Shown piece after piece: positions 721-21,227 of a DNA stretch of 45,720 bases (position 1 is its first letter; each line of letters begins with the position of its first letter). The stretch covers positions 1 to 45,720 of the forward strand of contig JBGQHA010000001.1 of assembly GCA_041497735.1 (NCBI GenBank), read 5' to 3'. The notes under the pieces are model-generated. The model searched no databases. It saw only the letters and a list, made by a program, of their open reading frames with translations, and had not been told where the DNA came from. This DNA comes from Dehalococcoidia bacterium. Lineage in GTDB: Bacteria > Chloroflexota > Dehalococcoidia > DSTF01 > RBG-16-68-14. The position numbers and the translations under genes were made by a program.

Positions 721-733
721 GGAGAGGTAGATC

Positions 734-1198: not shown

Positions 1199-1211
1199 GG
1201 TATCGGCTGCT

Positions 1212-2534
1212 ATGGGGAAGCGCATTCTCGTTCTCGCGGCGGCGGCCTACGGCCAGCGGATGTCTAGCCCGGGCATCCGCGCGCATCATATGGCACGCGT
1301 ACTCGTCGAGCGAGTGCCGGGCGCGCGAGTGACGCTCGCGGTTCCCGCCGACACCGCGCAAGGTGACACAAGCGGTGCGCCGTGCCGCATTGTGATGTAC
1401 ACCAAGTTCTCGATCATTCGCGAGTTGGCGAACCATGACATCATCATCGCGACGGGCTTTCCGGCATATGCGCTCTTCTTGTTCCCCTGGAAGACCTTCG
1501 TGCTCGACTTTTTCACGATGTATCTCCTGGAGTGGATGGGCGCGACCTTCGATGATCCGTACTACAAGACAGCCCGGCGCGGGGCGTGGCTGTCGCAGGC
1601 TCGGAAGTTCCTGAACATTCAGCTCACGTTTGCCGACTTCGTCCTCGCGGCGAGCGAGCGCCAGCGCGACTCTCACCTGGGTTCGATGATGAGTCTTGGG
1701 CTGGTGAGCCCGCGCGGGCATGCACAGGATCCATCGATGCGTAAACTGATCGGTGTGGCGCCGCATGGGATCCGTCCCGATCCGCTCACTCACACAAAGA
1801 GCGTCCTGAAGGGCCGGTACGCCGGCATCAAGGAGACGGACAGGCTCATCCTCTGGAACGGCGGCATCGTGAGCTGGTACGACCCGGCTACGCTCATTCG
1901 CGCGATGGCGGACATCTGCAAGGAACGGGACGATGTCAAGCTCGTATTCGTCGGATCGTCGTATCCGGGGCTCGGCAGCCTTGGCATGGGCAACCGCTTC
2001 CGGGACGCCGTGGACCTGTCGCGAGAGCTCGGCCTCTACAACCAGAGTATCTTCTTCGATATCGGCTGGGTTGGCTACGAGGAAATGAAGAACTACACGC
2101 TTGAGGCCGACATCAGCGTGTGCACCTACTTTCAAGGACTCGAAACCAACTTCTCCTTGCGCACTCGCTTTCTCGACGTCTTCTGGGGTGAGATCCCGCT
2201 CGTCTGCACGCAGGGTGACGTGCTGGCTGAGCTCGTCGAGGAGCACCGCCTCGGGCTGACCGTTGGCGAAGCCGACGTCGCCGGCGTCGCGGCGGCGATT
2301 CGCAGGCTGCTCGACGACCGGGAGTACTTCGAAGAGTGCAAGCGAAATATTCACGTTGCCAAGCGATGCATGACGTGGGATGTCGCCCTCGATCCGTTGA
2401 TCAGGTTCTGCATCGAAGGCGAGTCTATCGCGAAGCCGAAACGAGAGCGCGTCATGCCCCTCGTCGGGCGCATTGCGGGGCATGAGATTACGAGGCGGGT
2501 GCGGTCCCTCAGAGCTGCGTTCTTGAGATTCTGA
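1212..2534 (+). CDS. GT-B fold glycosyltransferase (GT1/GT4 clan), paralogue 1
   Basis: 440 aa. The C-terminal Rossmann half (ILWNGGIVSWYDPATLIRAMADICKERDDVKLVFVGSSYPG ... EADISVCTYFQGLETNFSLRTRFLDVFWGEIPLVCT) aligns with the next gene. Confidence 0.7.
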   Translation: MGKRILVLAAAAYGQRMSSPGIRAHHMARVLVERVPGARVTLAVPADTAQGDTSGAPCRIVMYTKFSIIRELANHDIIIATGFPAYALFLFPWKTFVLDFFTMYLLEWMGATFDDPYYKTARRGAWLSQARKFLNIQLTFADFVLAASERQRDSHLGSMMSLGLVSPRGHAQDPSMRKLIGVAPHGIRPDPLTHTKSVLKGRYAGIKETDRLILWNGGIVSWYDPATLIRAMADICKERDDVKLVFVGSSYPGLGSLGMGNRFRDAVDLSRELGLYNQSIFFDIGWVGYEEMKNYTLEADISVCTYFQGLETNFSLRTRFLDVFWGEIPLVCTQGDVLAELVEEHRLGLTVGEADVAGVAAAIRRLLDDREYFEECKRNIHVAKRCMTWDVALDPLIRFCIEGESIAKPKRERVMPLVGRIAGHEITRRVRSLRAAFLRF

Positions 2535-3934
2535 TGGTTGGCAAGAACTCCGACATCCTCGTCCTCACCCGCGACCACATCGGCGCGCGGATGGCGAGCC
2601 CGGGCATCCGGATGTTCAACATCGCGCGCGTGCTGGCGAACCAGCTCCCGGATCGCAGCGTGACGCTGGCGGTGCCGGCGGACTCGCAGCTACCGGATGG
2701 CAAGTTGCCGTTCGACGTGGTGCCGTACAAGCACCGGTCCGTCTTGCAGGCGGCGGGCCGCAGCGGCACACTGATCTCGAACTACTTCCCGCCGTATCTC
2801 TATCCTGTGATGGCAAACCGGCGCGTCATCCTCGATCTGTTCAGCCCATTCACCGAGCGACTCGAGGTGGCGCACTCGAAAGGGCGCGGCGCAGAAGCCT
2901 ACTTCGGGTCGTACACGAGAGAGCTCGTTTCCCAGCTACTGCTGACCGACCTCGTGCTCTGCGCTTCGGACCGGCAGCGCGACCTCTATTTCGGGATGCT
3001 GAGCGCGCTTGGCAACATCGAACCACAGGCGTACGACAGGGACCGCTGGCTCTCGGATCTGATCGTCCAGGCGCCGTTCGGAGTGCGCGAGGGCGAACCG
3101 AGGGCGACGCGCCCGGTGCTTCGCGGCGTGTGGCCGGGCATCGACGCCGGGGACACGGTCCTGATTTGGAACGGCGTGATTATCGAATGGTACGATCTCT
3201 TCACGCTGATCCGGGCGATCGCCCGGATCAGCGAAACACGCTCTGACATCAAGCTGTTTTTCTTGGGCACAGAGCATCCGGACAATCCCGGCGTGGCGAA
3301 GCTACAGGGGCTTGGCGGTGGCACGGTTCGCGCAGCCTTACAGCAGTGCGATGACCTGGGGCTGCTTAATCGCTCGGTCTTCTTCAACTTCGACTGGGTG
3401 GACTACGGGGACACGGCCAACTACCTCTGCGAGGCGGACATCGGCGTCTGCACGTACTTCGAGAACGTGGAGACGCGCTTCGCGTTCCGCTCGCGCTACG
3501 CCGACCTGCTGTGGGCCGGGCTGCCTATCATCTGCACGCGGGGAGACGTGTGGGCCGAGATGGTGGAACGCAGGCCGCTCGGCATCGCGGTTGCAGAACG
3601 AGACGAACCGGCGCTCGTCCACGCCATTGCGCGGCTTGCCGATGACCGCGCGTTCGGCCAGCAGTGCAAACAGAACCTCCGCGAAGAACGCGAGCGCTTC
3701 CGATGGGAACGCGTGTTGGAACGCCTAGTCCAGTACTGTCGGGACGAGCCCCAGACGAGGAGCAAGTGGGCGCGATTGCCATCGGTCGCCTCACTTCTGG
3801 CGGCGAACAAGCTGACCGCCCTAGAAGAAGGCGGCCTCGTGCGCGCAGCGCAGCTATACCGCCGCGCGCGAGGCGCGGTGCGAGCTGTCGGCGCCGCGGC
3901 GTTGGGCGGCTCGGCGAAACGGGGCCTTCCTTGA
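2534..3934 (+). CDS. GT-B fold glycosyltransferase, paralogue 2
   Basis: The ATG overlaps the upstream stop (TGATG at 2532-2536). VLIWNGVIIEWYDLFTLIRAIARISETRSDIKLFFLGTEHPDNPG ... EADIGVCTYFENVETRFAFRSRYADLLWAGLPIICT is clearly paralogous to 1212-2534. Confidence 0.7.
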   Translation: MVGKNSDILVLTRDHIGARMASPGIRMFNIARVLANQLPDRSVTLAVPADSQLPDGKLPFDVVPYKHRSVLQAAGRSGTLISNYFPPYLYPVMANRRVILDLFSPFTERLEVAHSKGRGAEAYFGSYTRELVSQLLLTDLVLCASDRQRDLYFGMLSALGNIEPQAYDRDRWLSDLIVQAPFGVREGEPRATRPVLRGVWPGIDAGDTVLIWNGVIIEWYDLFTLIRAIARISETRSDIKLFFLGTEHPDNPGVAKLQGLGGGTVRAALQQCDDLGLLNRSVFFNFDWVDYGDTANYLCEADIGVCTYFENVETRFAFRSRYADLLWAGLPIICTRGDVWAEMVERRPLGIAVAERDEPALVHAIARLADDRAFGQQCKQNLREERERFRWERVLERLVQYCRDEPQTRSKWARLPSVASLLAANKLTALEEGGLVRAAQLYRRARGAVRAVGAAALGGSAKRGLP

Positions 3935-4770
3935 GCCAGCGCTCGCTCGCCCCGGGACGCCCGCTGGCGGACGAACAGCTACGGACCGAAGGGACGCTGG
4001 CGTCTCATGGCGGGTGGGCGCGAGCCTGGGACCTGTTGTTCGCCCTGACGACACGAGAGCTGATGCTGCGGTATCGAGGCACCGTGCTGGGCTACCTCTG
4101 GTGGGTCGCCCGTCCGTTGGTACTTGGTCTCGTCCTCTGGTTCGCGCTGCGCAAGGTGCTCGACGTTCAGGTGCCGCACTACCCGCTGTTCATCATGACC
4201 GGGCTGTTCCCCTGGTTCTGGTTCTCGTCCGCCGTGTCCGAGGCGTCGGGCGTGATGCTCGGCCACTCGACCATGGTAAAGAAGGTCGTCTTCCCGCGAG
4301 CGATCCTGCCGCTCTCTTCTGCCGCCGGCAACGTCGCGCAGTTCATCTTTACGCTCCCGGTGCTGCTGGTATTCCTTGTCGTCGGCCACGTGCACCCGTC
4401 ACCGATGTGGCTCGTTGGGATCCCGTTGCTCATCTTGTTGCAATTCGCGCTGACGGTCGGCATCGGGCTGACGCTGTCCGTGCTTAATGTCTTCTTCCGC
4501 GACATTTCGCCGCTCATCGACGTCAGCATGACCATGCTGTTCTACGGATCAGCGGTGATCTTCCCGCTCGATCGCGTCCCTCACGGCATCAGGCCGTTCC
4601 TCCTGCTCAACCCGCTCACCACGCTGATGGAGGCCTGGCGAACCGTGCTGCTGGATGGACAGCTACCGCACCGTGACATCTTTTCCGCCGTCGGCCTCGC
4701 GGTTGGCGGTCTCCTCGCCGGCGTCACGGTGTTTCGGGCGTTAGAAAGGTATATTGCGGATGCGCTCTGA
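3931..4770 (+). CDS. wzm: ABC-2 type polysaccharide export permease (Wzm/TagG family)
   Basis: The ORF track runs from 3664, but that part overlaps the upstream GT. An in-frame TTG at 3931 overlaps the upstream TGA (TTGA). ELMLRYRGTVLGYLWWVARPL signature followed by about 6 hydrophobic helices. About 279 aa, typical for Wzm. The start is uncertain. Confidence 0.8.
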   Translation: MSQRSLAPGRPLADEQLRTEGTLASHGGWARAWDLLFALTTRELMLRYRGTVLGYLWWVARPLVLGLVLWFALRKVLDVQVPHYPLFIMTGLFPWFWFSSAVSEASGVMLGHSTMVKKVVFPRAILPLSSAAGNVAQFIFTLPVLLVFLVVGHVHPSPMWLVGIPLLILLQFALTVGIGLTLSVLNVFFRDISPLIDVSMTMLFYGSAVIFPLDRVPHGIRPFLLLNPLTTLMEAWRTVLLDGQLPHRDIFSAVGLAVGGLLAGVTVFRALERYIADAL

Positions 4771-5635
4771 CGATATTGCGCTGTCCGTGGACAACGTCTC
4801 GAAGCGCTTTCTCGTCGCGCAGATGCGTCCCTGGCGCGCGAGCGAGGCACTCCTACACCCTATCTCCTTCACGCGCGAAGTGCTCTTTGGCGAGCCGTTC
4901 TGGGCGCTCCATGACATTACGGTGAACGTCAGGAGCGGCGAGTTTCTCGGCATCATCGGGCAGAACGGGTCCGGCAAGAGCACGCTCCTGCGCGTCATGG
5001 CCGGCCTTTCGCCGCCAACGACGGGTCGCGTCACAGCGCGGGGCCGCGTCGCCTCCATCCTGGACCTGGGCGCGGGGTTTCACCCGCTGGCCACCGGCCG
5101 CGAGAATGCGTTCATCAACGGGCTGCTGCTGGGGCTCTCGAAGGAAGAGATCCGCGCGAAGCTCCCCGAGATCCTGCGCTTCGCCGAGCTGGAGGAGTTC
5201 GCCGACCGGCCAATGCGCACGTATTCGAGCGGGATGACGCTCAGGCTCTCATTCGCCGTAGCGGTGCACGTGCGGCCGGACATCTTCCTGATCGATGAGG
5301 TGCTCGCCGTCGGCGACGCGGACTTCCAGGAAAAGTGCTTCTCTCACTTCGAGTCGCTCAAGCGCGAAGGCGTAACGATCGTGTTCGTGTCGCACGACCT
5401 TGGCAGCGTCGAGCGGTTTTCCGACCGTGTGCTGCTGCTTGAGGCTGGACGCATCAGCGCGAGCGGCGACGCCCGCGACATCGTCAGTAAGTACTTGCAG
5501 GACCTGGCAGAACGATCACCGGCCGCGCGAAGACAGCTGGAGCAGGCGTTGCGCCGCGCACTGGCGGCTTGGCGAGAGAATGACCGGATCGAAAGCGAAG
5601 ACAGCAGCTCGGTCGGCGCGGAGGAGCGATCGTAG
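4760..5635 (+). CDS. wzt: ABC transporter ATP-binding protein (Wzt/TagH family), no obvious C-terminal carbohydrate-binding module
   Basis: Walker A GQNGSGKST, signature YSSGMTLRL, Walker B IFLIDEVLAVGD. The ATG at 4760 overlaps the wzm 3' end (track start is a TTG at 4754). Only about 50 aa follow the NBD. Confidence 0.9.
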   Translation: MRSDDIALSVDNVSKRFLVAQMRPWRASEALLHPISFTREVLFGEPFWALHDITVNVRSGEFLGIIGQNGSGKSTLLRVMAGLSPPTTGRVTARGRVASILDLGAGFHPLATGRENAFINGLLLGLSKEEIRAKLPEILRFAELEEFADRPMRTYSSGMTLRLSFAVAVHVRPDIFLIDEVLAVGDADFQEKCFSHFESLKREGVTIVFVSHDLGSVERFSDRVLLLEAGRISASGDARDIVSKYLQDLAERSPAARRQLEQALRRALAAWRENDRIESEDSSSVGAEERS

Positions 5636-6232
5636 ATGGACGCGCTACGCGGCCCGTGCCCGCCCGTGAAGGTTGACCTTGGCTGCGGCAGAAGGAAGGT
5701 GCCGGGGTCGATCGGCGTCGACATCGTTCCTGCGCCGGCCGTGAATGTCGTCGCCGACTTTCGACAGGGGCTGCCGTTCAGAGACGACTCCATCGATGCC
5801 GTGTATGCCTACCACCTGCTGGAGCACATGGATGACTTCATGGGCTTCATGGAGGAGATCTGGCGCATCTGCACGGACGGCGCGCACGTCTACATCAAGG
5901 TGCCGCACGCCGCTTCGCCGTTCGTGACGTGGAAGGACCCGACGCACAAGCGCGGGCTCTTCATCGCCACATTCGCGTACTTCGACGTCACGTACTTCGA
6001 CGGCTCGGCGTTTTCGTATTATTCGAAGGCCAAGTTCCGTATCGAGAAAGCGCGGCTCAACTTCTCGATCGATAACGGGCAGAGCTTCCCCTTCCTGCGC
6101 CGCACGGCGAACCAGCTCGTCCACGTCTTCGCGAACAGGAGCCGCACGACGCAGTACCTCTGCGAGCGCTTCTGGGGTCCGCTTGTGGGCATCGAGGAAG
6201 CGGTGCTTCTCCTGCGCGCGCTCAAGGCCTAG
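5636..6232 (+). CDS. Class I SAM-dependent methyltransferase (Methyltransf_11-like)
   Basis: The ATG directly follows the wzt stop (TAGATG). Motif I VDLGCGRRK; later DSIDAVYAYHLLEHMDD. Confidence 0.8.
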   Translation: MDALRGPCPPVKVDLGCGRRKVPGSIGVDIVPAPAVNVVADFRQGLPFRDDSIDAVYAYHLLEHMDDFMGFMEEIWRICTDGAHVYIKVPHAASPFVTWKDPTHKRGLFIATFAYFDVTYFDGSAFSYYSKAKFRIEKARLNFSIDNGQSFPFLRRTANQLVHVFANRSRTTQYLCERFWGPLVGIEEAVLLLRALKA

Positions 6233-6245
6233 CGCGCGAACGCTT

Positions 6246-7625
6246 CTAACGTCCCTTGTTCGGATTGCGGCGGCGCAGAAGACTCCGAGTCTGCGTGGCT
6301 GCCTTGTAGACGATGCTGGAGCGCAGGGCGCCGACGAACGAGAGGATGTCTTTGAGATCGTCGGCGATGGAGTCGAGGCGGCTATCCAGACGCCGTTCGA
6401 GCGCGTCGACCCGCGCCGCCATCTGCTGCAGATCGTCATCGACCTGCGAGGCGACCTGCCAGAGCTGCGCTGACTGTGTCGTCGCGATCTGGCGCAGCAG
6501 AGCAGCGTCGCCCGCGCGCGCAGCAGCGTCTTCGATGGCGGTCGGATCGGTCTGGCCGGACAGCGCTCGATAATCGGGAGGGCTGTATCCCTGCTCAAGG
6601 CAGAGTGCGCGGAAGCAGATGCCGCCGGGATGGTACTCGCCTGAGACGCAAAGCTGCTCTGAATCGCCGTCGGGCTGGTCGGAAAGGATCGGTGCGACGG
6701 CCGCACCCTCCCGGCCATCCCATGAGCTCAGGACGAGCCGGTAGTCGCGGCCGGCGGAGCTGGAGATCGGCGAGAAGATGAACGCGCTCCAGACGCCATC
6801 GACGATGTGCTGTCCAAGCTGCCTTCGTTCGGCGACGAGCCGGCCTGTGGCTTCGTCGCGGAGCTCGCACTTGACGTGGCAGAAGTTCATGCGCCCGCCG
6901 GTGCGAAACTTCATGTCGATCCGCGCCAGGCTGTCCGCCGGACAGCGAAACGTCTGCTCGACTGTGACGCCCGCACGCAGCTCAGGGAGCGCGTTCTCGC
7001 CCGAGGCCGACTCGTGAACGATCGCATCCAGTACCGGCTCGAAACGCAGCAGCGGGCCGCCGTAGGCGCTCTCGGGCCAGTTCGCCTCGAGCGCCGCAGC
7101 GGATGCCGCGAACGCGACTTGGGCGTCCGGCGCGGCGCTCTTCTGGGCCGCCGCGAGGACGGTGTGGGGCGCGAGCGGGTCGCCCTGGTACCAGACGGCT
7201 CGGACCGGGAACGGCCGCAGCAACAGATCGAACGCGGCAGGAGTGAAGCGCCAGTAGTCCCAGGGATGATTGTGGATCGGAAAGTTCATCACGGAGCCGA
7301 TCAGCACCAGTCCGTCGTCGCGCAAGATACGATGCGCCTCGCGAAGGGCCAGCAGCGGGTCCTGCACGTGCTCGAGCGTGTCCATCATCACGACGGAGCC
7401 GACACTGCCGTCGGCGACGCCGAGCTGGTGTGTATCGAGCAGCACATCGACGGCAGGGCCAGGCAGGAAATCGCCGCCGATGTAGCGCTTGTCCGCGAAG
7501 CAGGGACGCAGCTCGGCGTAGTCTTCCTGGCCCTCCGCTGGGCGCGAGCCGATCTCGAGCACGGGCTCGGGAACAGAAAAGGCCTTCGCGGCCATCACGG
7601 TAAACGTCTTGACGTTGTCTCTCAT
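6246..7625 (-). CDS. SAM-dependent methyltransferase with a central beta-rich domain and a C-terminal coiled-coil and basic tail
   Basis: N-terminus LEIGSRPAEGQ ... GSVGSVVMMDTLEHVQDP ... LRDDGLVLI (class I MT). C-terminus QLWQVASQVDDDLQQMAARVDALERRLDSRLDSIADDLKDILSF shows heptad-like periodicity, then RSLLRRRNPNKGR. Confidence 0.75.
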   Translation of the reverse strand: MRDNVKTFTVMAAKAFSVPEPVLEIGSRPAEGQEDYAELRPCFADKRYIGGDFLPGPAVDVLLDTHQLGVADGSVGSVVMMDTLEHVQDPLLALREAHRILRDDGLVLIGSVMNFPIHNHPWDYWRFTPAAFDLLLRPFPVRAVWYQGDPLAPHTVLAAAQKSAAPDAQVAFAASAAALEANWPESAYGGPLLRFEPVLDAIVHESASGENALPELRAGVTVEQTFRCPADSLARIDMKFRTGGRMNFCHVKCELRDEATGRLVAERRQLGQHIVDGVWSAFIFSPISSSAGRDYRLVLSSWDGREGAAVAPILSDQPDGDSEQLCVSGEYHPGGICFRALCLEQGYSPPDYRALSGQTDPTAIEDAAARAGDAALLRQIATTQSAQLWQVASQVDDDLQQMAARVDALERRLDSRLDSIADDLKDILSFVGALRSSIVYKAATQTRSLLRRRNPNKGR

Positions 7626-7718
7626 GTTCCGGTCGATCTCTGCGTCATTCTACGCGACCGAGAAAGCTGCCACCAAGCCCCTTCGAGCGGCGGGCCGCGT
7701 GTGGTGAGCCTGACGTCC

Positions 7719-8996
7719 CTAGCGCCTATTCGCTGGAGTCAGCTCGATGACGTCGTTCGTTGGCGCAGTGTTCGGCTGCGAACGGGCTGGCCTGCGGTTG
7801 AAGACGTAGTTGAACCCATCGTTTGGTTGAAAGTCGGTTGTAAACGCTGCGCGTGAGACACCTTGCGCTCGCTGCCGCTTGTACTGGTCCCAGATGAGCG
7901 TGATGGGACAGTCGTAGCAGATGAGTGACTTTGCGAGCGGCGATGCGCCGGCGTGCGACCGGAAGAGCGTTCGCGCCTCGCGAAACTTGTCGTTGTTCCA
8001 AAGCTGGCGGAAGCTCGAAGCTGACAGCTCAGCGAGGGGGATAGCATGATCATTGCCGAACACGCCAAAATCGTCTTCCTTATAGTACGCGGCGCAGCAC
8101 GGCGCCGTGCCCCCATCGCTGTTGACGACCGCCTGCTGCCAGAGAAAGTGGCAGTAGCCGGGGTTGGGCTTTTGTTCGGGGTCGATAAACTCCTTGTTGA
8201 TATCCCAGTCAGGGCCGGCAACCCAGCCCTTCGACAGGGCAAACTCCATGTCGAGCTCCGCCGCCATTTGGCGGGCGGACTCGATCTCTTCCTTCGTCTT
8301 GTTGTGCGAGAAGATGTGGTACTCCCAGATCATATGCGGATACTTCGAGCCCAGCTTCTGCTTCGCGGCGTTTACCAGCTGAACGTTGCGCAATATCGTC
8401 CCGAGATCGCCGCGGACTCTGTACTGCTCATAGCTCTCCTGCGATGCGCCATCGAGCGATACGCCAAGCACCTGCAGACGTGCGGCCACGAGTTGTTCCG
8501 CGCGTTCTTCGTCGAACGGGAAGCTAAAATTCGTGCTGATGATGGTAGAGATGCCGCGGTCACTCGCGAGGCCTACCATGTCGTAGATGTTCTTATTGAG
8601 CAGTGGTTCACCCCAGTTGTAGAACTCGACGAGAAACAGCCTGTCGCCCAACTCGTCCAGAACCTTCTTGTACAGGGGCAATTGGAGCATCGTCTTGTCG
8701 CGGCCGATCTCGCCCGCTCCCGTGAAGCAATACGGGCAACGCAAATTACAAGCGTTGGTAGACTCTATCGTCAAGACAAGTGGCGAGCCGTAGAGCTTCA
8801 CGTGTCCGCGGCTTTTCTGGAAGCGGACCAAGTAGAGGTTGAGCAGGCGTGTTGGGGTCAGGCGGACACCTGGGTAATTGGGAACGCGCAGGAACGACAG
8901 CAGTTGGCGGTACGCATCTCGTCCCCAAGACACGGGTCTACGGACGAGTCGCCAAAGCTTTCCGAGCACAGCTGGTGCTAGGGAGCGTTTTTTCAT
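7719..8996 (-). CDS. Radical SAM enzyme with a SPASM/twitch-type C-terminal Cys cluster
   Basis: CNLRCPYC (CxxxCxxC) at about residue 83. C-terminal Cys-rich region CHFLWQQAVVNSDGGTAPCCAAYY ... LICYDCP. The gene is markedly lower in G+C than its neighbours (60/120 G+C at 8521-8640). Confidence 0.85.
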   Translation of the reverse strand: MKKRSLAPAVLGKLWRLVRRPVSWGRDAYRQLLSFLRVPNYPGVRLTPTRLLNLYLVRFQKSRGHVKLYGSPLVLTIESTNACNLRCPYCFTGAGEIGRDKTMLQLPLYKKVLDELGDRLFLVEFYNWGEPLLNKNIYDMVGLASDRGISTIISTNFSFPFDEERAEQLVAARLQVLGVSLDGASQESYEQYRVRGDLGTILRNVQLVNAAKQKLGSKYPHMIWEYHIFSHNKTKEEIESARQMAAELDMEFALSKGWVAGPDWDINKEFIDPEQKPNPGYCHFLWQQAVVNSDGGTAPCCAAYYKEDDFGVFGNDHAIPLAELSASSFRQLWNNDKFREARTLFRSHAGASPLAKSLICYDCPITLIWDQYKRQRAQGVSRAAFTTDFQPNDGFNYVFNRRPARSQPNTAPTNDVIELTPANRR

Positions 8997-9043
8997 GTGG
9001 CCTTAATCCTGGCGGGAGCGGGGGCCCGTCGATGCGGTGGCAA

Positions 9044-9073
9044 ACTTTAGCAAAGGCTGCGGTAACCTGTCAA
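9044..9073 (-). promoter_or_regulatory. Possible sigma-70-type promoter for the radical SAM operon (TTGACA-N18-TAAAGT)
   Basis: On the minus strand, a perfect TTGACA at 9073-9068 and TAAAGT at 9049-9044, about 45 nt upstream of the ATG at 8996. Confidence 0.3.
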
Positions 9074-9075
9074 CA

Positions 9076-9084
9076 TGCTATACT
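9076..9084 (+). promoter_or_regulatory. Extended -10 promoter element TGCTATACT facing the acyltransferase operon
   Basis: TGn + TATACT in the 233-nt divergent intergenic region, 146 nt upstream of the 9230 start. The same 9-mer occurs at 43407-43399. Confidence 0.4.
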
Positions 9085-9229
9085 TGCGTACCACGCAACT
9101 ATTCGAACTCAGCCGTTCCGCGGTTGTTACAGCGACGACGTGTCTCCGTTAGTGATGATGAAGGGCAGTTCATCGTTCGGCAGGGAGTCTGCGCGGCTGA
9201 GCGGCATGGTCTCCGAGATCTCTTCCTAA

Positions 9230-10507
9230 ATGGCGGCGCTGGCGGTATCCGCCGAATCGAGCGGCCGGCCGGGCGAGGCCAGCAACGCCCGCCACTTGCC
9301 GGTACTCGACGGTCTACGTGGTCTCGCGATCCTGCTCGTCATGCAGCACCACTTCTGGGGTTTGGCGTTTGGTCTGGGCGGCCGGGCTCCGACGCTCGCG
9401 ATTGACCTCCATATGCGCGCGCTCTTCGCCGTCGGCTGGTCGGGCGTCGACCTCTTCTTCGTGCTCTCAGGTTTTCTCATCACGGGTATCCTTTGCGATG
9501 CGAAACGATCCAACTTCTATTTCCGCAACTTCTATGCCCGCCGGCTGCTCCGCATCTTTCCGCTCTATTATGCGTTCCTAGTGTTCGCGCTGTTCTTGTT
9601 GCCGAACTTCCATAGACTGGTGGGACCCGACCAGGTGAGCCAGTTGCGCGCGAGCCAGTTCTGGTACTGGACGTATACGATGAACATCGGGTCAGCGGTG
9701 AAGCAGTTCCACACCCAAGTGCCGATCGTGCATAGCCAGTTTTGGTCGCTTGCAGTCGAAGAGCAGTTTTATCTGGTCTGGCCGCTCCTTATCCTCCTTC
9801 TCAGCCGCCGAACGATGACGGTGGTGTGCGGGGTCCTCGTCGGCGCCGCGCTCGCTGTTCGCTTCGTCCTTGTGGATCCGATAAGCGCGTCATTCGCCAA
9901 CCTGAACGCGGCGCACGTCTTGCTGCCGGCCCGCATTGACACGCTTGCGCTTGGGGCGCTGATTGCGCTCATGGTGCGCGGGGGAAGCGACCTCATCCCA
10001 TTCCGTCGATATGCGTTTCCCGTTGCTGCTGGGTCGCTGTTGGTGCTCACGGTTCTCTTCGTTAGGCACCATGGGTTATCCGTGCTCGATCGGGACGTCG
10101 CGACCATCGGGTTTTCCGCGTTGGCGCTGTTCTTCGCCGCGTTACTGCTGCTCGTTGTGTCATCTGTGCCGGGCTCGGCGCTCCATCGCGTCTTTACGTC
10201 GTCTGGCCTGAGGATGCTGGGCCGTTATTCGTACGCGATCTACGTCTGCCACCTGCTGCTGGCGTTTGAGCTCGCCGCCGAGTTCGTTCGCCACGATGTT
10301 TCACGCACGGTCTTCGGTTCGCAGATACCGCTGAACATCGTGTTCAGTCTGGTCTGCACGGCCGGGTCCATCGCAGTCGCCTGGCTGAGCTGGCACTTCT
10401 TCGAGAAGCAGGTCCTGAAGCTGAAGCGATACGTGCCGTACGGGCGCCCGCGCCCAGCCGTTGAACGGCCGGCGGTGGCGGAGCGGCCGATGCTGGCGGC
10501 GCCATGA
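9230..10507 (+). CDS. Acyltransferase family 3 (OafA/YrhL-type membrane O-acyltransferase), paralogue 1
   Basis: LPVLDGLRGLAILLVMQHHF, GVDLFFVLSGFLITGIL, RRLLRIFPLYY, WSLAVEEQFYLVWP. About 10 TM segments. The start is uncertain. Confidence 0.85.
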   Translation: MAALAVSAESSGRPGEASNARHLPVLDGLRGLAILLVMQHHFWGLAFGLGGRAPTLAIDLHMRALFAVGWSGVDLFFVLSGFLITGILCDAKRSNFYFRNFYARRLLRIFPLYYAFLVFALFLLPNFHRLVGPDQVSQLRASQFWYWTYTMNIGSAVKQFHTQVPIVHSQFWSLAVEEQFYLVWPLLILLLSRRTMTVVCGVLVGAALAVRFVLVDPISASFANLNAAHVLLPARIDTLALGALIALMVRGGSDLIPFRRYAFPVAAGSLLVLTVLFVRHHGLSVLDRDVATIGFSALALFFAALLLLVVSSVPGSALHRVFTSSGLRMLGRYSYAIYVCHLLLAFELAAEFVRHDVSRTVFGSQIPLNIVFSLVCTAGSIAVAWLSWHFFEKQVLKLKRYVPYGRPRPAVERPAVAERPMLAAP

Positions 10508-10586
10508 CTTCGGGCTCCTGAGGCCGTCTCGTAGCATCAGGGTAGAAGCCGCGTTATGTTAGTGACGCCCCGCTGGAGCGCAGACC

Positions 10587-11816
10587 TTGGGCCAACAGGC
10601 GAACGAAGCGCTATCTGAACCCCGGCGCATCCCTGCGCTCGATGGGGTGCGCGGCATCGCCATTCTCCTGGTACTGACGTACCACTTTTCGTGGGCGCTC
10701 GGATTCGGAACGCAGTTCCCGGACCGCGCCCTCGGCCGGGTTCTGAGTGTCGGCTGGGCAGGGGTCGACCTGTTCTTCGTCCTCTCGGGGTTCCTCATCA
10801 CCGGCATCTTGCTCAACGCGCGTGAAGGCAGCGGCTACTTCCGCACCTTCTATGCGCGCCGGGTGCTTCGCATATTCCCGCTCTACTACGGCTTCTTGTT
10901 CATGATGATCGTGGTGCTTCCGGAGCTGCCGTTCCTGCGCGACAACCACGGGCTTCAGACCTTACGGCATCACCAGTTGATCTACTGGACGTACTTGTAC
11001 AACGTAGCGATCTCCCTTCATCCGGGCGTTGACCTTGGCCCCTACGCGAACGGGCATTTGTGGTCGCTGGCGATCGAAGAGCAGTTCTATCTGATCTGGC
11101 CGTTCGTGGTCCTCGTGCTCGGGCGGCGGGCCCTCGCCTCGTTTTGTGTTCTCTCCATCGTCGCGGCGCCGGTTATCCGGTATGGGTTGCTGCACGGCGC
11201 CGTTCCGGATCTCCAGAACGTCTTCGCCGCTTCAACCCTGATGCCGGCGCGCATGGATACGCTTGCCCTCGGCGCCCTGATCGCGGTGATCTACAGAGAT
11301 CCTGATCTCGTACGCAAGGCGGCTCGCTGGGCGCTTCCGGTTGGCGTGGTGGCGATCTCGGCGCTCGTGATCTTGGATCTCAACCGGCATGGGCTTTCGT
11401 TGCTGGATGAGAGAGTCCTTATGTATGGCCTCAGCGGTGTGACGCTAACCTTCGGTGCGGTTGTCATGCTGGTGGTCGGCGGCGTGCCTGGCACGCTCCA
11501 GTCGGTCATGGCAAATCGCGTGTTGACGTTCTTCGGCAGGTACAGCTACGGTCTCTACGTCCTTCACTTCCAGATCATGGAGGAGCTGAAGAAACAAGCG
11601 GCGAACCATGACTGGGTCCGTTCTGTCGGGGGATCGTTCATTCCGTTCGACTTGGCGTTTACGGCAGTGGCGTTGACCCTCTCCGTCTCAGCCGCGTGGC
11701 TGAGCTGGCAGCTCTTCGAGAAGCAGGTCCTGAAACTCAAGCGGTACGTACCGTACGGACGGAGGGCCGCGATCGAGCCAATTGGCCGCCGCCAGCCGAC
11801 GCTACCAGCGCGATGA
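10587..11816 (+). CDS. Acyltransferase family 3, paralogue 2
   Basis: TTG start per the track. IPALDGVRGIAILLVLTYHF, GVDLFFVLSGFLITGIL, WSLAIEEQFYLIWP. The C-terminal WLSWQLFEKQVLKLKRYVPYG is nearly identical to paralogue 1. Confidence 0.85.
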   Translation: MGQQANEALSEPRRIPALDGVRGIAILLVLTYHFSWALGFGTQFPDRALGRVLSVGWAGVDLFFVLSGFLITGILLNAREGSGYFRTFYARRVLRIFPLYYGFLFMMIVVLPELPFLRDNHGLQTLRHHQLIYWTYLYNVAISLHPGVDLGPYANGHLWSLAIEEQFYLIWPFVVLVLGRRALASFCVLSIVAAPVIRYGLLHGAVPDLQNVFAASTLMPARMDTLALGALIAVIYRDPDLVRKAARWALPVGVVAISALVILDLNRHGLSLLDERVLMYGLSGVTLTFGAVVMLVVGGVPGTLQSVMANRVLTFFGRYSYGLYVLHFQIMEELKKQAANHDWVRSVGGSFIPFDLAFTAVALTLSVSAAWLSWQLFEKQVLKLKRYVPYGRRAAIEPIGRRQPTLPAR

Positions 11817-13282
11817 CGACTCCCGTCCTCGATGGCCACGACGGCTCGCAGGGCGTCGTCGAACGCGCCCAGCGGCTGGTCGGGGTGCCTCACCTTGTCC
11901 TGGCGCTCATCCTCGCCTTCGGCTGCATACTCTACTTCTCGATGCTCAACGATTGGTTCCAGACGGACGACTTCATCTACCTGCGCGTCGCCCAGACACA
12001 CGATTCACCCGCCTACCAGCTGCACGCCTGGAACTTCTATGCAGACCGATCAGACGGGCCGATATCGGGGTCGCAGGGCAAATACCAGCCACTGTACGAG
12101 ATCGGCATCGTTAGCGAGGCGAAGGTCTTCGGGCTGCATGCGCTGCCGTACCATGCGGTGAGCCTGGCACTCCACCTGACCAACGCCGCCCTCGTGTGGT
12201 TCGTCGTCATGAAGGTGACCAAGAGACAGCTGGTCGCGCACCTTGCCACGCTGATCTTCGTGGCCCATCCAACGTACGTCATAGCTGTGTCCTGGATCTC
12301 CGACCAGGTCGCGCTCGCAGCCACCACCTGTGCCTTGTTCTGCGTTTTGTCGTTCACCAAGTCGCTGGAGCCGGGCAGGAACGCCCGCCTCTGGTACGCC
12401 GCCTCCATCGCGAGCTATCTCGCAGCAATCTTCTTCCACCCGAAGGTCGCCGTCGTGCCCGTCGCGCTCGCTGCATACTACTTCTTCGTCTACTCCACAG
12501 ATCTGCGGGGACTGACCTCGCCGCGCAGCTGGCTGCGGTTTACGCCGTACGTTGCAGTGGCATTCTTCCCGTTGGCCGCCAACTACTGGCTGCGCGATCA
12601 ATCCGTGTACTGGCACGGCGCGAACGGGGTCGGCCCGCACATCTACAAGAACTATGTGCAGTACCTACGCATGGCCCTCATCCCGGACCCGTGGCTGCAC
12701 GGCGCCCGGCTGGGAGCCGTCGCCTGCGGGGCCTGGCTGTCCATCGGCCTGTGGCTCTTGCGGGACCCGCGCTACCGCAGTGTGGGCGTGCTGGCCCTGG
12801 CCTGGCTGGTTGCCGCCATCTTCCCGCTCACCACCTTGACGTCGGGGGCGTACAACCGAGAGCTCTACGTCGCCGGGCCCGCCGTAGCGTTGACGCTCGC
12901 ACTCTTCTTGGTAAGCGTGCTGGACTGGCTACCGAAGCAGGCGGCCACGAACATGCTGGCTTTCGCGGTTGTCGTCGTCCTGTTCGCCCTCGTTTCGCGA
13001 CGGACGATCATGAACGAAAGCGCGTTCGCGGGCAACGCCGCGGAATCGCGGGATTTCATCGAGAGGCTGCGGGAGACGTATCCTGCGCTGCCACGTGGCA
13101 CTTCTGTCTACGTTGTCGGCACACCGAGCAGCCTTCACATCTTCGGGGACGTCCACCTCAATGCGCTCGGCCAGGTCTACTACGGTGACATCCCATTCAT
13201 CACTGTCTCGGAGGTTGACGCTGAGGCGATCGAGCGGTCCGGGCAGCCCAACGCGTTCGTCTTCCGTTACGCGCCGCCCTGA
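11813..13282 (+). CDS. Polytopic membrane protein, GT-C-like (PMT/TMTC-type) putative glycosyltransferase
   Basis: The ATG at 11813 overlaps the upstream TGA (ATGA); the track ORF from 11696 is an extension. First-loop motif WFQTDDFIYL, then YQPLYEI ... LPYHAVSLALHLTNAALVW, as in PMT_2/TMTC-like proteins. Many TM helices. Confidence 0.6.
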   Translation: MTTPVLDGHDGSQGVVERAQRLVGVPHLVLALILAFGCILYFSMLNDWFQTDDFIYLRVAQTHDSPAYQLHAWNFYADRSDGPISGSQGKYQPLYEIGIVSEAKVFGLHALPYHAVSLALHLTNAALVWFVVMKVTKRQLVAHLATLIFVAHPTYVIAVSWISDQVALAATTCALFCVLSFTKSLEPGRNARLWYAASIASYLAAIFFHPKVAVVPVALAAYYFFVYSTDLRGLTSPRSWLRFTPYVAVAFFPLAANYWLRDQSVYWHGANGVGPHIYKNYVQYLRMALIPDPWLHGARLGAVACGAWLSIGLWLLRDPRYRSVGVLALAWLVAAIFPLTTLTSGAYNRELYVAGPAVALTLALFLVSVLDWLPKQAATNMLAFAVVVVLFALVSRRTIMNESAFAGNAAESRDFIERLRETYPALPRGTSVYVVGTPSSLHIFGDVHLNALGQVYYGDIPFITVSEVDAEAIERSGQPNAFVFRYAPP

Positions 13283-13298
13283 CCTGGCCTGCTGGCCT

Positions 13299-13331
13299 GC
13301 GGGCGCCAAGTGCTGCACTGTGGGCGCCCGC
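13299..13331 (+). terminator. GC-rich hairpin downstream of 11813-13282 (terminator-like, weak U tract)
   Basis: GCGGGCGCC (13299-13307) pairs with GGCGCCCGC (13323-13331) around a 15-nt loop. It starts 17 nt after the stop codon. Confidence 0.35.
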
Positions 13332-13350
13332 GCGCGTATTCTCCAGGCCA

Positions 13351-13361
13351 TGCTATATAAT
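13351..13361 (+). promoter_or_regulatory. Near-consensus extended -10 (TGCTATATAAT), placed for a leaderless or near-leaderless transcript of 13370-14722
   Basis: TATAAT ends at 13361 and the ATG is at 13370 (8-nt gap). There is no SD sequence between them. Confidence 0.5.
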
Positions 13362-13369
13362 GGCGCCCA

Positions 13370-14722
13370 ATGGCAGACATAACGCACGAGAGCGGGTGGC
13401 AGGCCCGCCTGCACGGCGTAACAAGAATCAACTGGCTTGTTTGGCTGCTGCTCACAGCGGTGCTCTTGCACCTGCTGATGATGGGATCCCTCTTCTGGGG
13501 CTACCTCAACCCGTTGTCCTATCAGACGCACCGCGCGGGGCAGGCGCTTGACTTCTTTTCCATCTACGAGGCGGGTCATAAGGCCCTCCTCAACCGGTCG
13601 TTTTATGATTCCGCGCTCGGCGACACGATGGTGCGGACACCCTATCACTCGAGTTACCGCTACGTTCCTGTGTTTGCCTACGGGTTCGGCGTGCCCGCCA
13701 ACGCGCTGCCCCCATGGCCGGCGTACTGGGGCTGGGTTGCGTTCAACGAGCTCTTGCTGGTCGTCAACGCATACGCGACGTGGCGCGTGGCCGGAAAGAG
13801 CTCGTGGGGGGTAGTGGGCGCGGCGATGTGGTTCGTGTTCACGCCGATCTACGTAGAGTTCTACGACGGGCAGTTCTCCTTCCTGATGGCAACCTTCGTG
13901 CTGTGGATGGGCATCGGTCTTCTGCGGCAGAAGGAACTCCTGACAGGCGCTTCATGGGCGCTCTCCTTGGTGACAAAGAGCAACACGGTACTCGTGGCGC
14001 CGATGCTTTTCCGCATCGGTTGGTGGCGTGCGCTGGTGTTGGGGGCTGCTGTTGCCGCAGTCAATCTCCCGTACTTCATCTGGCGCCCCGCCGATCTCGA
14101 GTTCTTCTGGCGCGCCAGTGTCAACGACTCGCTCACGCATCCTATCTTCCGTCCAATGCTCTACACGCCCGCCAATCACGGCCTGCTTTCCTTCTTCAAC
14201 AACGCCTACCTAGCCTCCCATTCAGCTGCTGTCGATGTGTCCCACGCCTTGCCCCTCGTGCTGACCTTCGTCATCATCGGTTCGTCTCTCGCCGTCACGT
14301 TCCTCGCTCGCCGCGCCGACCCGCTGCTGTTGCTCGCCACTTGGGTGACGGCGTTCTTTCTATTCGACGGGTGGGTACCGGAGTACCACTACGTTATGCT
14401 CCTGCCGGTGCTGGTGCTCCTCGTCGGACACCGGCCCGGCTTGCGCATCCCAGCGCTCGCCGTGTTCGTGGCGCTGGCCCTGCCCACGCCCTACTGGCTG
14501 TTGAATCACGTCTGGAACACGAGTGCCGTCCCCCCGCCGAGCATGTTGGACCCAGTCCAGCTGAGCTGGCCCGCATGGGGCGTGGTCTTCTATCACGCTG
14601 CGAAATCGCTACCAACGCTCGCCCTGTGGTCGTACCTCGTAGCTGTGCAGTGTCGAGGTGGGACTCACGGTCGCACCCTTCGCACGAGTCCTGACATCGG
14701 CCCAAGGGCTGGAACCGTATAG
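13370..14722 (+). CDS. Polytopic membrane protein, DUF2029/GT87-like putative glycosyltransferase
   Basis: 450 aa with about 11 hydrophobic helices. Early loop ALDFFSIYEAGHKALLNRSFYD resembles GT87/DUF2029 proteins. Has its own consensus-like promoter immediately upstream. Confidence 0.55.
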   Translation: MADITHESGWQARLHGVTRINWLVWLLLTAVLLHLLMMGSLFWGYLNPLSYQTHRAGQALDFFSIYEAGHKALLNRSFYDSALGDTMVRTPYHSSYRYVPVFAYGFGVPANALPPWPAYWGWVAFNELLLVVNAYATWRVAGKSSWGVVGAAMWFVFTPIYVEFYDGQFSFLMATFVLWMGIGLLRQKELLTGASWALSLVTKSNTVLVAPMLFRIGWWRALVLGAAVAAVNLPYFIWRPADLEFFWRASVNDSLTHPIFRPMLYTPANHGLLSFFNNAYLASHSAAVDVSHALPLVLTFVIIGSSLAVTFLARRADPLLLLATWVTAFFLFDGWVPEYHYVMLLPVLVLLVGHRPGLRIPALAVFVALALPTPYWLLNHVWNTSAVPPPSMLDPVQLSWPAWGVVFYHAAKSLPTLALWSYLVAVQCRGGTHGRTLRTSPDIGPRAGTV

Positions 14723-14764
14723 TTAGGAATCGGAGTCGCCCAGCCGCAGAGGGGTTAGTCGAGC

Positions 14765-15682
14765 ATGGACCGATTGCCGAGCGTCTATATCGTCGTCGTG
14801 AATTGGAATGGGTGGCAGCACACGGTGCGCTGCCTGAAGTCTTTACAGGCGCTCAACTATCCCGACTACCAGGTGGTCACCGTCGATAACGGTTCGAACG
14901 ACGGCTCAGTCGAACGCATCCGCGCGGCGTTTCCAGCGATCAACGTCATCGAAACGGGAGCGAACCTCGGCTTCGCGGGCGGAGCCAACGCCGGCATCAG
15001 GGCCGCGCTGGAGCGTGATCCGGCGTACGTCTGGCTCCTGAATAACGACGTGGAAGTGGAGCCCGACACGCTGACACAGCTTGTCGATGCCGCCCGCGCG
15101 CATGAGCGGGTGGGCATCGCCGGCCCCTCGGTGTGGCGCCCGCCCGCCGGCGGCCAGGCGTCGATGGAGCCGGCAGCCTTCGTCTGGCATGGCGAGTATC
15201 GAGCCGCGACCGCTTGTCCAGAGCAGACCGGACAGGAGCCGTTCCACCTGGTGGACGATCTTGCCGGCAGCAGCATGCTGCTCGACGCGGCGATGTTGCG
15301 TGAGATCGGATTGCTCGACGAGCGCTTCTTCCACTACTGGGACGATGTCGAGTTCTGTGCGCGAGCGCGCATGGCCGGCTGGCTGGTCGGGCACGCATGC
15401 CGGCCGCACATCTGGCATGTCGTGGGCGCGACGGTACCGACGACGAGCGCGCAAGCGCAGTACTACTTCGTGCGCAACTGGCTCTTGTTCGCGCGCTGGT
15501 CAGGCCGCGGCGGGCTGCTCACGATGTTGCGGCGCGCTCCGAGAATGACACTGGGGCTGGTCCTCGGCCGGCGCTGGCTGCTGCGCGGGAAGTGGCGCGT
15601 GTCGGTCGCCAGCCTGACGGGCGCTGCCGACGCGCTGCGCGGGCGCTACGGACAGCGAGAGCTGCCGCGTTGGCTGCGCTAA
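14765..15682 (+). CDS. GT2 family glycosyltransferase, WbbL-like (candidate rhamnosyltransferase)
   Basis: VYIVVVNWNGWQHTVRCLKSLQALNYPDYQVVTVDNGSNDGS, NLGFAGGANAG, LLNNDVEV, YWDDVEFCARARMAGW. GAGGGG RBS upstream. Confidence 0.85.
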   Translation: MDRLPSVYIVVVNWNGWQHTVRCLKSLQALNYPDYQVVTVDNGSNDGSVERIRAAFPAINVIETGANLGFAGGANAGIRAALERDPAYVWLLNNDVEVEPDTLTQLVDAARAHERVGIAGPSVWRPPAGGQASMEPAAFVWHGEYRAATACPEQTGQEPFHLVDDLAGSSMLLDAAMLREIGLLDERFFHYWDDVEFCARARMAGWLVGHACRPHIWHVVGATVPTTSAQAQYYFVRNWLLFARWSGRGGLLTMLRRAPRMTLGLVLGRRWLLRGKWRVSVASLTGAADALRGRYGQRELPRWLR

Positions 15683-15709
15683 GCGCAGACCGGCTAGACT
15701 GACGGAAGC

Positions 15710-17958: not shown

Positions 17959-17971
17959 GCTGTATCTCAGC

Positions 17972-20391: not shown

Positions 20392-20398
20392 GAGCGAA

Positions 20399-21208: not shown

Positions 21209-21227
21209 GGCTTACTCTGGCGGATGC

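Follow-up and report, generated by a model that had tools for sequence, protein, structure and literature searches.

A radical SAM twitch-domain enzyme in a Wzm/Wzt-dependent glycan locus of a Dehalococcoidia bacterium and its possible role in sugar tailoring

Introduction

BtrN, the 2-deoxy-scyllo-inosamine dehydrogenase of the butirosin pathway (PDB 4M7T), joins a radical SAM core to a one-cluster twitch domain and has a carbohydrate-like compound, not a peptide, as its substrate; the definition of the twitch domain and the chemistry of BtrN have been described (PMC9012708). BlsE, the cytosylglucuronate decarboxylase of blasticidin S formation (PDB 7VOB), abstracts hydrogen from a nucleoside- or nucleotide-linked sugar ring, and the same sugar-ring abstraction is carried out by DesII, the TDP-4-amino-4,6-dideoxyglucose deaminase (PDB 8HZV). 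To our knowledge, the twitch radical SAM enzymes that act on sugars and have been characterised (BtrN, BlsE and others) all serve antibiotic or secondary-metabolite pathways, and antibiotic sugars are the only ones for which radical chemistry of this kind has been documented. We know of no characterised chain-terminator system that includes a radical SAM enzyme.

Literature on radical SAM enzymes in O-antigen, Wzt or polysaccharide pathways yielded no description of the family studied here. Matches in the Xanthomonas literature concerned unrelated genes, and a paper on Campylobacter HS:19 simply lists an uncharacterised radical SAM gene beside a methyltransferase gene in the capsule cluster. 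The whole stretch that we analysed (the window) comprises 45,720 nt of contig JBGQHA010000001.1 (GCA_041497735.1) from a Dehalococcoidia bacterium, whose genome is an 82%-complete MAG with a 2.84-Mb assembly in 480 contigs.

Results

The gene at positions 7719 to 8996 (minus strand) encodes a protein of 425 aa, hereafter the rSAM protein, that belongs to the radical SAM superfamily. Pfam Radical_SAM (PF04055) matches residues 77-214 above its cut-off (4.8e-13; 50 bits against 29.5), the CX3CX2C motif CNLRCPYC (8727 to 8750, minus strand) provides C83, C87 and C90 as predicted ligands of the SAM-cleaving [4Fe-4S] cluster, and the AF2 model (mean pLDDT 87.6) has six beta/alpha units that form a partial (beta/alpha)6 barrel, after which come a beta-hairpin and helices. 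Exactly five cysteines lie outside the motif. When 45 homologues with 49-77% identity were aligned, C83, C87 and C90 were invariant together with C282, C300, C360, C363 and the GGE-type motif NWGEP, while C301 was conserved in at least 90%. A family-specific N-terminal extension (residues 1-72; 8781 to 8996, minus strand) contains two helices in the AF2 model (8-36 and 48-63) and the conserved stretch YPG-RLTPKRLLNLYLVR-Q--RGH-KL-G-P, and the family also has a conserved C-terminal tail, NDGFNYFF-RRP.

A sequence-only reading of the window had reported both CNLRCPYC and a C-terminal CHF...CC...C..C pattern, which are indeed present, and had classed the protein as SPASM/twitch. Pfam SPASM (PF13186) matches residues 282-364 above its cut-off (7.4e-9), and the protein shares this match, a CX9-15GX4C hairpin and the partial TIM barrel with anSME and the RiPP maturases AlbA, SkfB, SuiB, PqqE and MftC. 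However, a SPASM domain proper, with two auxiliary clusters as in anSME, AlbA, PqqE and MftC, needs seven or eight cysteines including a CX2CX5CX3C block, which is absent here; no cysteine follows C363 in the rSAM protein or in the family consensus. The domain (residues ~280-366; 7899 to 8159, minus strand) instead consists of a C282-x12-G295-x4-C300 hairpin, modelled as a beta-hairpin at 288-298, then C301 and finally C360-x2-C363. The invariant cysteines C282, C300, C360 and C363 pair in the alignment with C169, C187, C232 and C235, which ligate the auxiliary cluster of BtrN, and we therefore assign the domain to the one-cluster twitch type, its cluster content being predicted from sequence. 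The twitch part of the earlier label thus holds and the two-cluster SPASM part does not.

BtrN is the best PDB match both for the single sequence (E 2.4e-7) and for a profile of the 45 homologues (3.5e-10), and with the auxiliary-cluster cysteines matching one to one and the C-x17-C spacing of the first pair identical, the comparison with BtrN-type dehydrogenases drawn in the sequence-only reading was apt. Foldseek with the AF2 model placed BlsE first (3.8e-12) and BtrN second (1.7e-10), followed by SuiB, DesII, SkfB and MoaA. These are distant relatives, with identities to BtrN and BlsE of only about 20% and TM-scores of 0.40-0.64, and the RiPP maturases SuiB, SkfB and CteB score nearly level with BtrN and BlsE in the fold and profile searches, so the fold class alone does not fix the reaction. 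BtrN, at 250 aa, has neither the 70-residue N-terminal extension nor the NDGFNYFF-RRP tail, and the conserved C301 is an extra feature of the rSAM protein. Moreover, BtrN is encoded in an aminoglycoside antibiotic cluster, whereas the present family is found in primary surface-glycan loci with methyltransferases. Orthology to BtrN as a DOIA dehydrogenase was rejected on the ~20% identity and on a window that carries a Wzm/Wzt glycan locus and no aminocyclitol genes.

The presence of DesII and BlsE among the top structural matches raises the alternative that the rSAM enzyme makes an unusual cytoplasmic nucleotide-sugar precursor, by deaminating, dehydrating or decarboxylating a dTDP-sugar or another NDP-sugar in the manner of DesII, AprD4 or BlsE, and does not tailor a polymer; its link to methyltransferases would then hold only at the level of the pathway. 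DesII gives the longest Foldseek alignment (383-406 columns), the weak sequence match between query residues 25-193 and the N-terminal region of DesII takes in part of the N-terminal extension, and the window holds an RmlD gene and a cupin/RmlC-like gene, RmlC and RmlD being present also in the homologous locus L092. Against this, an auxiliary cluster with four cysteine ligands suggests redox chemistry like that of BtrN, and DesII, as far as we know, has no auxiliary cluster. DesII and BlsE further belong to secondary-metabolite pathways at 15-21% identity to the rSAM protein, decarboxylation or deamination is not supported by the gene context, and adjacency and fusion to methyltransferase and GT2 genes fit an acceptor or polymer as well as an NDP-sugar. 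We regard precursor synthesis as rather unlikely; it overlaps with the account favoured in the Discussion and differs from it solely in the stage at which the substrate is met.

Several lipid-acting radical SAM enzymes carry a basic N-terminal helical extension ahead of the core, as the rSAM protein does, and weak matches were obtained to Tes (NF045702, 7.7e-8) and GDGT-MAS (7tol; 1.9e-7 by profile, 1e-6 by Foldseek). With genes for LPG_synthase_TM-type membrane proteins among the neighbours of the rSAM gene in six loci, the enzyme could be imagined to act, as HpnH, Tes and GDGT-MAS do, on a lipid, be it the polyprenyl carrier, a lipid that anchors the glycan or one of the membrane. Yet Tes and GDGT-MAS match less well than BtrN and BlsE do, with alignments confined to the core barrel, and they have more clusters and larger C-terminal domains; the rSAM protein has no hydrophobic segment, and the fusion partners in the family are GT2 and soluble methyltransferases. 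A lipid substrate appears to us to be a poor bet.

The surrounding locus encodes Wzm (an ABC-2 permease; Pfam ABC2_membrane) and Wzt (an ATPase of the short form lacking Wzt_C; Pfam ABC_tran) at 3934 to 5635 (plus strand), in a region syntenic with the rSAM-bearing loci L001, L008, L012, L015, L016 and L042. We propose that this transporter exports the glycan that the rSAM enzyme would tailor. Directly after wzt is a gene for a class I methyltransferase of 198 aa (5636 to 6232, plus strand; Pfam Methyltransf_11), the 92% identical orthologue of which adjoins the rSAM pair in L001.

The rSAM gene itself is accessory and lies in the hypervariable, recombining centre of the glycan locus. By blastn, contig G002:C3 of a genome from the same genus aligns to the window flanks 1-2671 and 14776-23377 at 82-91% nucleotide identity but gives nothing for the segment from 6228 to 9304, which comprises the rSAM gene, its methyltransferase/coiled-coil neighbour and the intergenic regions; together with the tblastn map, this shows both genes to be missing from the congener despite the common flanks. 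Overall, a family member is carried by none of the four congeners and by 11 of 41 relatives. The base composition of the gene is also unusual, with a GC of 0.580 against 0.655 for the window, the lowest of the 31 window genes and the fourth lowest among 989 long ORFs in the MAG (0.3 percentile, z = -3.2). The deviation that the sequence-only reading had gathered from hand counts (60/120 against 36/60 and 48/60, all exact) was therefore borne out by the computed profile. However, low GC is in part characteristic of the family and GC3 is unremarkable (0.739, only the 21st percentile; GC1 is at the 4.5th, GC2 at the 9th), and cross-phylum transfer as its cause was rejected because the gene tree puts the rSAM gene inside Chloroflexota clades. 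Of the separate acquisition proposed earlier, what remains is a low-GC gene in a recombining cassette whose nearest relatives are still Chloroflexota.

Downstream of the rSAM gene by 93 bp and on the same strand is the partner gene (6246 to 7625, minus strand), the 459-aa product of which combines a class I methyltransferase domain (Pfam Methyltransf_11/23 in residues 15-127) with a beta-sandwich (198-343 in the AF2 model) and a ~90-residue C-terminal helix (361-452); Foldseek returned methyltransferases and jelly-roll proteins. A promoter-like site (TTGACA-18-TAAAGT with TG, 10/12 matches; 9044 to 9073, minus strand) precedes the rSAM gene, and a TTGACAG...TAnAnT arrangement also stands upstream of the two closest homologues, in L001 and L002. 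Since the two genes share a strand at 93 bp, with a promoter-like site upstream and no terminator-like site between them, it is plausible from the sequence, and perhaps probable, that they are co-transcribed, as the suggested two-gene operon would have it. The partner gene adjoins rSAM paralogues in L004, L008, L009 and L012 as well. The two do not form an obligate pair, however, as the closest syntenic loci, L093 and the P0271 contig, have the partner gene but no rSAM gene.

The domain order of the partner protein, a methyltransferase followed by a long C-terminal coiled coil, resembles that of the WbdD-type chain terminators of ABC-transporter-dependent O-antigens (E. coli O8/O9a), in which Wzt_C reads a methyl or phosphomethyl cap at the chain end. 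The resemblance extends to gene order, with the partner gene directly 3' of wzm-wzt in L008 and L012, and to the rest of the window locus, which encodes a GT4-GT4-Wzm-Wzt pathway. Unlike WbdD, the partner protein has a beta-sandwich in place of the kinase domain, and unlike its counterparts in WbdD systems, the window Wzt has no cap-binding Wzt_C domain. No WbdD homology was seen among the four PDB sequence matches or the 50 fold matches listed for the partner protein.

The rSAM family comprises 619 clusters at 50% identity (E <= 1e-30) and ranges over many mostly uncultured phyla, such as Chloroflexota, Binatia, Myxococcota and Methylomirabilota, and includes members in archaea. As naive ORF calling was unreliable in high-GC Binatia and Myxococcota loci, gene-called contigs were used in place of it; all six homologue loci on such contigs, which come from Chloroflexota, Binatia and other phyla, contain class I methyltransferases, and several also contain Wzm/Wzt, glycosyltransferase, RmlC/RmlD, GDSL or AT3 genes. 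De novo clustering across 82 loci, in counts weakened by crude ORF picking in many high-GC loci, showed that the neighbour families most often present are GT2, GT4, class I methyltransferase, B12-rSAM, NAD-epimerase and GT9; acyltransferases also occur. Methyltransferase genes are about 3-fold denser within 1.5 kb of the rSAM gene (2.9 per 10 kb) than farther away (0.7-1.2), and one lies at most 300 bp from it in 33 of 80 loci. Fusions in the order rSAM-methyltransferase were found in nine cluster members, one of them from Ca. Methylomirabilis oxyfera, and methyltransferase-rSAM and GT2-rSAM fusions exist as well.

These neighbourhoods bear on the further alternative that the enzyme matures a protein or peptide, with a target such as the methyltransferase/coiled-coil protein, an alkaline-phosphatase-type enzyme (compare anSME and sulfatases) or an unannotated short peptide. 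Peptides are indeed the substrates of most characterised SPASM/twitch enzymes, the structural matches include SuiB, SkfB, CteB and anSME, and in L015 and L016 a Phosphodiest gene of the alkaline-phosphatase superfamily follows 9 bp after the rSAM gene. On the other hand, the Phosphodiest neighbours have a PTNS-type Ser/Thr nucleophile context and no C/S-x-P-x-R motif, by which their maturation of the FGly type was rejected, and the window contains neither a Phosphodiest gene nor a sulfatase; the single auxiliary cluster predicted for the rSAM protein, against two in anSME, also led us to reject an anaerobic sulfatase-maturating enzyme. A RiPP maturase was rejected in turn. The absence of an adjacent precursor-peptide ORF, already remarked on from the sequence, held in that the region upstream of the rSAM gene contains no conserved small ORF and the intergenic ORFs near it encode 24-26 aa that are not Cys/Gly-rich and not conserved in L001 or L002. 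Pfam detected no PqqD/RRE domain, the N-terminal extension being two helices. An NCBIfam scan gave 58 weak matches, none of which came near its own cut-off (98 bits against 380 for the best maturase model), and in the 82 loci the neighbours are glycan genes and not genes for precursor peptides. Given the above, we consider a peptide or protein substrate very unlikely.

Discussion

A sugar is most likely the substrate of the rSAM enzyme, rather than a peptide, because the family sits in sugar-polymer gene clusters beside methyltransferases; the preference for a carbohydrate expressed in the sequence-only reading is supported by this context. Taking the evidence as a whole, we are inclined to view the enzyme as an accessory tailoring enzyme of a rhamnose-linked, Wzm/Wzt-dependent glycan locus that acts on sugar, an account that we hold to be somewhat likelier to be right than wrong. 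Under it, the enzyme probably abstracts a sugar C-H in concert with a methyltransferase. The CX3CX2C cluster would cleave SAM to a 5'-deoxyadenosyl radical, and the truncated SPASM domain would hold one fully cysteine-ligated auxiliary [4Fe-4S] cluster. The radical would take hydrogen from a carbon of either a lipid-linked glycan residue or a nucleotide-sugar precursor. As in BtrN, the substrate radical may then be oxidised to a keto-sugar with the auxiliary cluster accepting the electron, or it may be re-quenched from the other face to give an epimer, after which a neighbouring class I methyltransferase could methylate the new or newly exposed position.

More tentatively, and with the odds against it, the rSAM family may be a dedicated and widespread tailoring class for primary cell-envelope polysaccharides, in which the radical enzyme and a class I methyltransferase, sometimes fused, form a two-part module that would oxidise or epimerise a residue of the lipid-linked polymer or start a branch from it. 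This module might set a chain-end mark that governs Wzm/Wzt export and might produce serotype-like variation between close species. If the polymer is the substrate, radical chemistry would join the known tailoring repertoire of O-antigen-like glycans, and part of the variability of glycan loci between species would be explained. The rSAM-methyltransferase fusion in Ca. Methylomirabilis oxyfera (CBE67386.1), which is encoded in the order GT4-GT4-[fusion]-GT2, and the compact module of the window offer concrete constructs for biochemistry.

Domain organization and fold of the radical SAM protein

The rSAM gene (7719-8996, minus strand) encodes a protein of 425 amino acids with a Radical_SAM domain (residues 77-214, 4.8e-13) and a match to the SPASM domain (residues 282-364, 7.4e-9), both above the Pfam cut-off. 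Its sequence contains eight cysteines in all: C83, C87 and C90 in the motif CNLRCPYC, followed by C282, C300, C301, C360 and C363. In an alignment of 45 homologues all are invariant except C301, which is at least 90% conserved. C282 and C300 form a C-x12-G-x4-C pair, that is, a CX9-15GX4C hairpin motif, and no CX5CX3C continuation follows C360-x2-C363 in that alignment. A profile of the homologues compared with the PDB gave BtrN as the top sequence (3.5e-10), with its C169, C187, C232 and C235 opposite the invariant C282, C300, C360 and C363; these four BtrN residues are the ligands of its single auxiliary cluster. The sequence-only reading had labelled the gene radical SAM/SPASM. The first half of the label stands, while the C-terminal domain, with four invariant cysteines and no CX5CX3C, is by its sequence a twitch domain and not a SPASM domain; the twitch domain definition and the four-cysteine ligation of the BtrN auxiliary cluster have been described (PMC9012708).

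The AF2 model of the protein (mean pLDDT 87.6, pTM 0.85) runs from two N-terminal helices through six beta/alpha units to a beta-hairpin (288-298) and further helices. When searched against the PDB with Foldseek, the model matched BlsE first (3.8e-12) and BtrN second (1.7e-10), followed by SuiB, DesII, SkfB, MoaA and viperin, with modest TM-scores (0.40-0.64) that indicate a remote relationship. These matches, based on a predicted model, fix the class of the enzyme and not its reaction. The protein has the motifs for two [4Fe-4S] clusters and belongs to the twitch fold class.

None of 58 weak NCBIfam matches came near its curated cut-off (the top one, TIGR04317, scored 98 bits against 380), placing the protein outside every named family. 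Of the 8000 candidates scored from 5.8 billion proteins, 433 were matches, hundreds of them with identities of 47-79%. The enzyme class is already known; the literature searched does not describe this family, the extensions at its N and C termini, or the way its members systematically sit in loci for primary surface glycans and are coupled to methyltransferases.

Association with glycan loci and methyltransferases

The association of the family with glycan loci and methyltransferases is conserved. In Chloroflexota, a module of RmlD, GT4, GT4, Wzm, Wzt (the ABC-transporter glycan exporter) and MT198, a 198-residue class I methyltransferase (5636-6232 in the window, plus strand), is found repeatedly, together with one or two rSAM paralogues; the position directly after wzt is taken by either the methyltransferase/coiled-coil protein MTcc or a protein of the Phosphodiest type. 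On gene-called contigs from other phyla, family members are surrounded by Wzm and Wzt with a Wzt_C domain, several GT2, RmlC and RmlD, along with class I methyltransferases, some of them TylF-type, and GDSL and AT3-SGNH genes. More distant members (30-37% identity) from Anaerolineae, Desulfobacterota-like MAGs and archaea neighbour GT2, GT4, GT9, NAD-epimerase and B12-radical SAM genes. Gene calls in some homologue loci are crude ORF picks.

The methyltransferase link is the most specific neighbourhood signal of the family. Up to 1.5 kb from rSAM the density of class I methyltransferase genes is 2.9 per 10 kb, compared with 0.7-1.2 at greater distances, and 33 of 80 loci have one no more than 300 bp away. 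Three fusion architectures were found (rSAM-methyltransferase, methyltransferase-rSAM and GT2-rSAM), as well as B12-rSAM-TPR-rSAM proteins. Nine cluster members, drawn from independent assemblies, have the first architecture; among them is CBE67386.1 of Ca. Methylomirabilis oxyfera, encoded in the order GT4-GT4-[fusion]-GT2. The methyltransferase domain in this fusion belongs to the short Methyltransf_11 subtype, as in both window methyltransferases. On a Ca. Methylomirabilis oxyfera contig (L106), the gene for a 666-residue natural fusion of an rSAM family member to a class I methyltransferase (9001-11001) is flanked by two GT4 genes on one side and a GT2 gene on the other, and an S-adenosylhomocysteine hydrolase gene lies a few genes upstream on the opposite strand.

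Based on this company and the twitch fold class, the rSAM protein is probably a glycan-tailoring enzyme. The 5'-deoxyadenosyl radical would take a sugar C-H hydrogen from a lipid-linked glycan or NDP-sugar, and the fully cysteine-ligated auxiliary cluster could accept the electron in a BtrN-like manner, a role proposed for the BtrN cluster (PMC9012708). This would yield a keto-sugar or an epimer, on which a neighbouring methyltransferase may then act. That the reaction takes place specifically at the NDP-sugar stage is an unlikely sub-variant, and action on a lipid substrate is quite improbable. A protein or peptide substrate is very improbable: the sequence-only reading had seen no adjacent precursor-peptide ORF, and indeed no conserved precursor-like ORF lies upstream of the gene, nor did Pfam reveal an RRE in the protein.

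The Phosphodiest protein (517 residues, alkaline-phosphatase superfamily) that replaces MTcc in some related loci may be an alternative chain-end-modifying enzyme, and rSAM is also followed by a paralogue of this protein (L015, 6241-7794; L016, 2787-4340 and 11158-12546; L009, 4587-6152). A Binatia contig (L091) has a compact block (651-8496) of three radical SAM genes, two of the rSAM family and one of 742 residues, with two methyltransferases and a PhyH-type dioxygenase.

The partner gene MTcc

MTcc (6246-7625, minus strand) encodes 459 amino acids. In the model, a methyltransferase domain precedes a beta-sandwich (198-343), with a helix some 90 residues long (361-452) as the third part. Foldseek matched the protein to generic methyltransferases and to proteins with a jelly roll; the top match of the beta-sandwich is a capsid protein of the jelly-roll type from a virus. 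Membership in the WbdD family is unsupported, as WbdD is absent from the 50 fold matches listed and sequence matches in the PDB are just marginal methyltransferases. The MTcc family is small, with 20 matches in 5.8 billion proteins. In E. coli O8/O9a, wbdD directly follows wzm-wzt, and MTcc has the same place in two homologue loci (L008 and L012); by analogy, its role may resemble that of a terminator or ruler.

Co-transcription of rSAM and MTcc would fit their 93-bp intergenic gap, the conserved promoter-like site upstream of rSAM and the lack of a terminator-like site between the two genes. An inverted repeat, TTGCGT-GGT-ACGCAA (9084-9098, minus strand), lies just upstream of the -35 box (9068-9073) inside a stretch of about 70 nt partly conserved upstream of the homologue in L001, and could serve as an operator in the control region between the divergent rSAM and AT3a genes.

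A variable locus within the genus

The rSAM gene is accessory. It is the single family member in the source MAG (2.84 Mb, 82% complete), and members occur in none of four same-genus genomes and in 11 of 41 relatives (E <= 1e-40; best 58% identical). Compared with the congener G002, the window is 82% identical in DNA over 1-2671 and 89-91% over 14776-23377; protein identity is 94% for RmlD and the cupin gene and 90-94% for GT2, Wzx, GT4d, MT11 and PMT2a. The locus centre (about 2671-14776) is just 65-72% identical or unalignable, and 6228-9304, with MTcc and rSAM, has no counterpart. This centre is a serotype-like replaceable cassette. In G002 it is without MTcc, rSAM, AT3b, GT87 and MT24 and carries one extra GT4. 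The stretch that aligns at 89-91% is interrupted by a gap (15697-16391) at the Methyltransf_24 gene MT24 (15710-16489), the second small difference in gene presence.

Two loci encode an MTcc protein (80% and 61% identity) and no rSAM; one of them, L093, has the gene order of window 2-7625 and is collinear with it. The nearest rSAM homologue (77% identity) is in L001, together with Wzt (84%), Wzm (78%) and MT198 (92%); there its partners are a second rSAM paralogue and another methyltransferase, different from MTcc. In the tree, the window protein joins the L001 and L002 proteins within clades of Chloroflexota/Dehalococcoidia. Given the G002 comparison, the distribution and the tree, rSAM belongs to a variable region that recombines in a serotype-like manner, and it was exchanged within the phylum. 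The separate acquisition proposed earlier thus holds in spirit, but not as import from afar.

The three hand counts of G+C behind that proposal were exact on recount. At 0.580, the gene has the lowest GC among 31 window genes and the fourth lowest among 989 long ORFs of the assembly (0.3 percentile). All three codon positions share in the deficit (GC1 0.580, 4.5th percentile; GC2 0.420, 9th; GC3 0.739, 21st), so amino-acid content contributes. Low GC is also partly a family trait, since rSAM falls below the mean of its neighbours in 89% of 81 members (mean -0.026) and in 83% of the 46 with at least 44% identity (mean -0.016). The window deficit, -0.076, is the largest among those 46 listed.

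The two tandem acyltransferase-3 proteins are only 46% identical overall, yet the 3' tails of their genes (10367-10446 and 11682-11761) share 80 nt at 86% identity, possibly through gene conversion or as a recombination junction. The single AT3 of G002 is nearest to AT3a (66%) and that of L093 to AT3b (60%).
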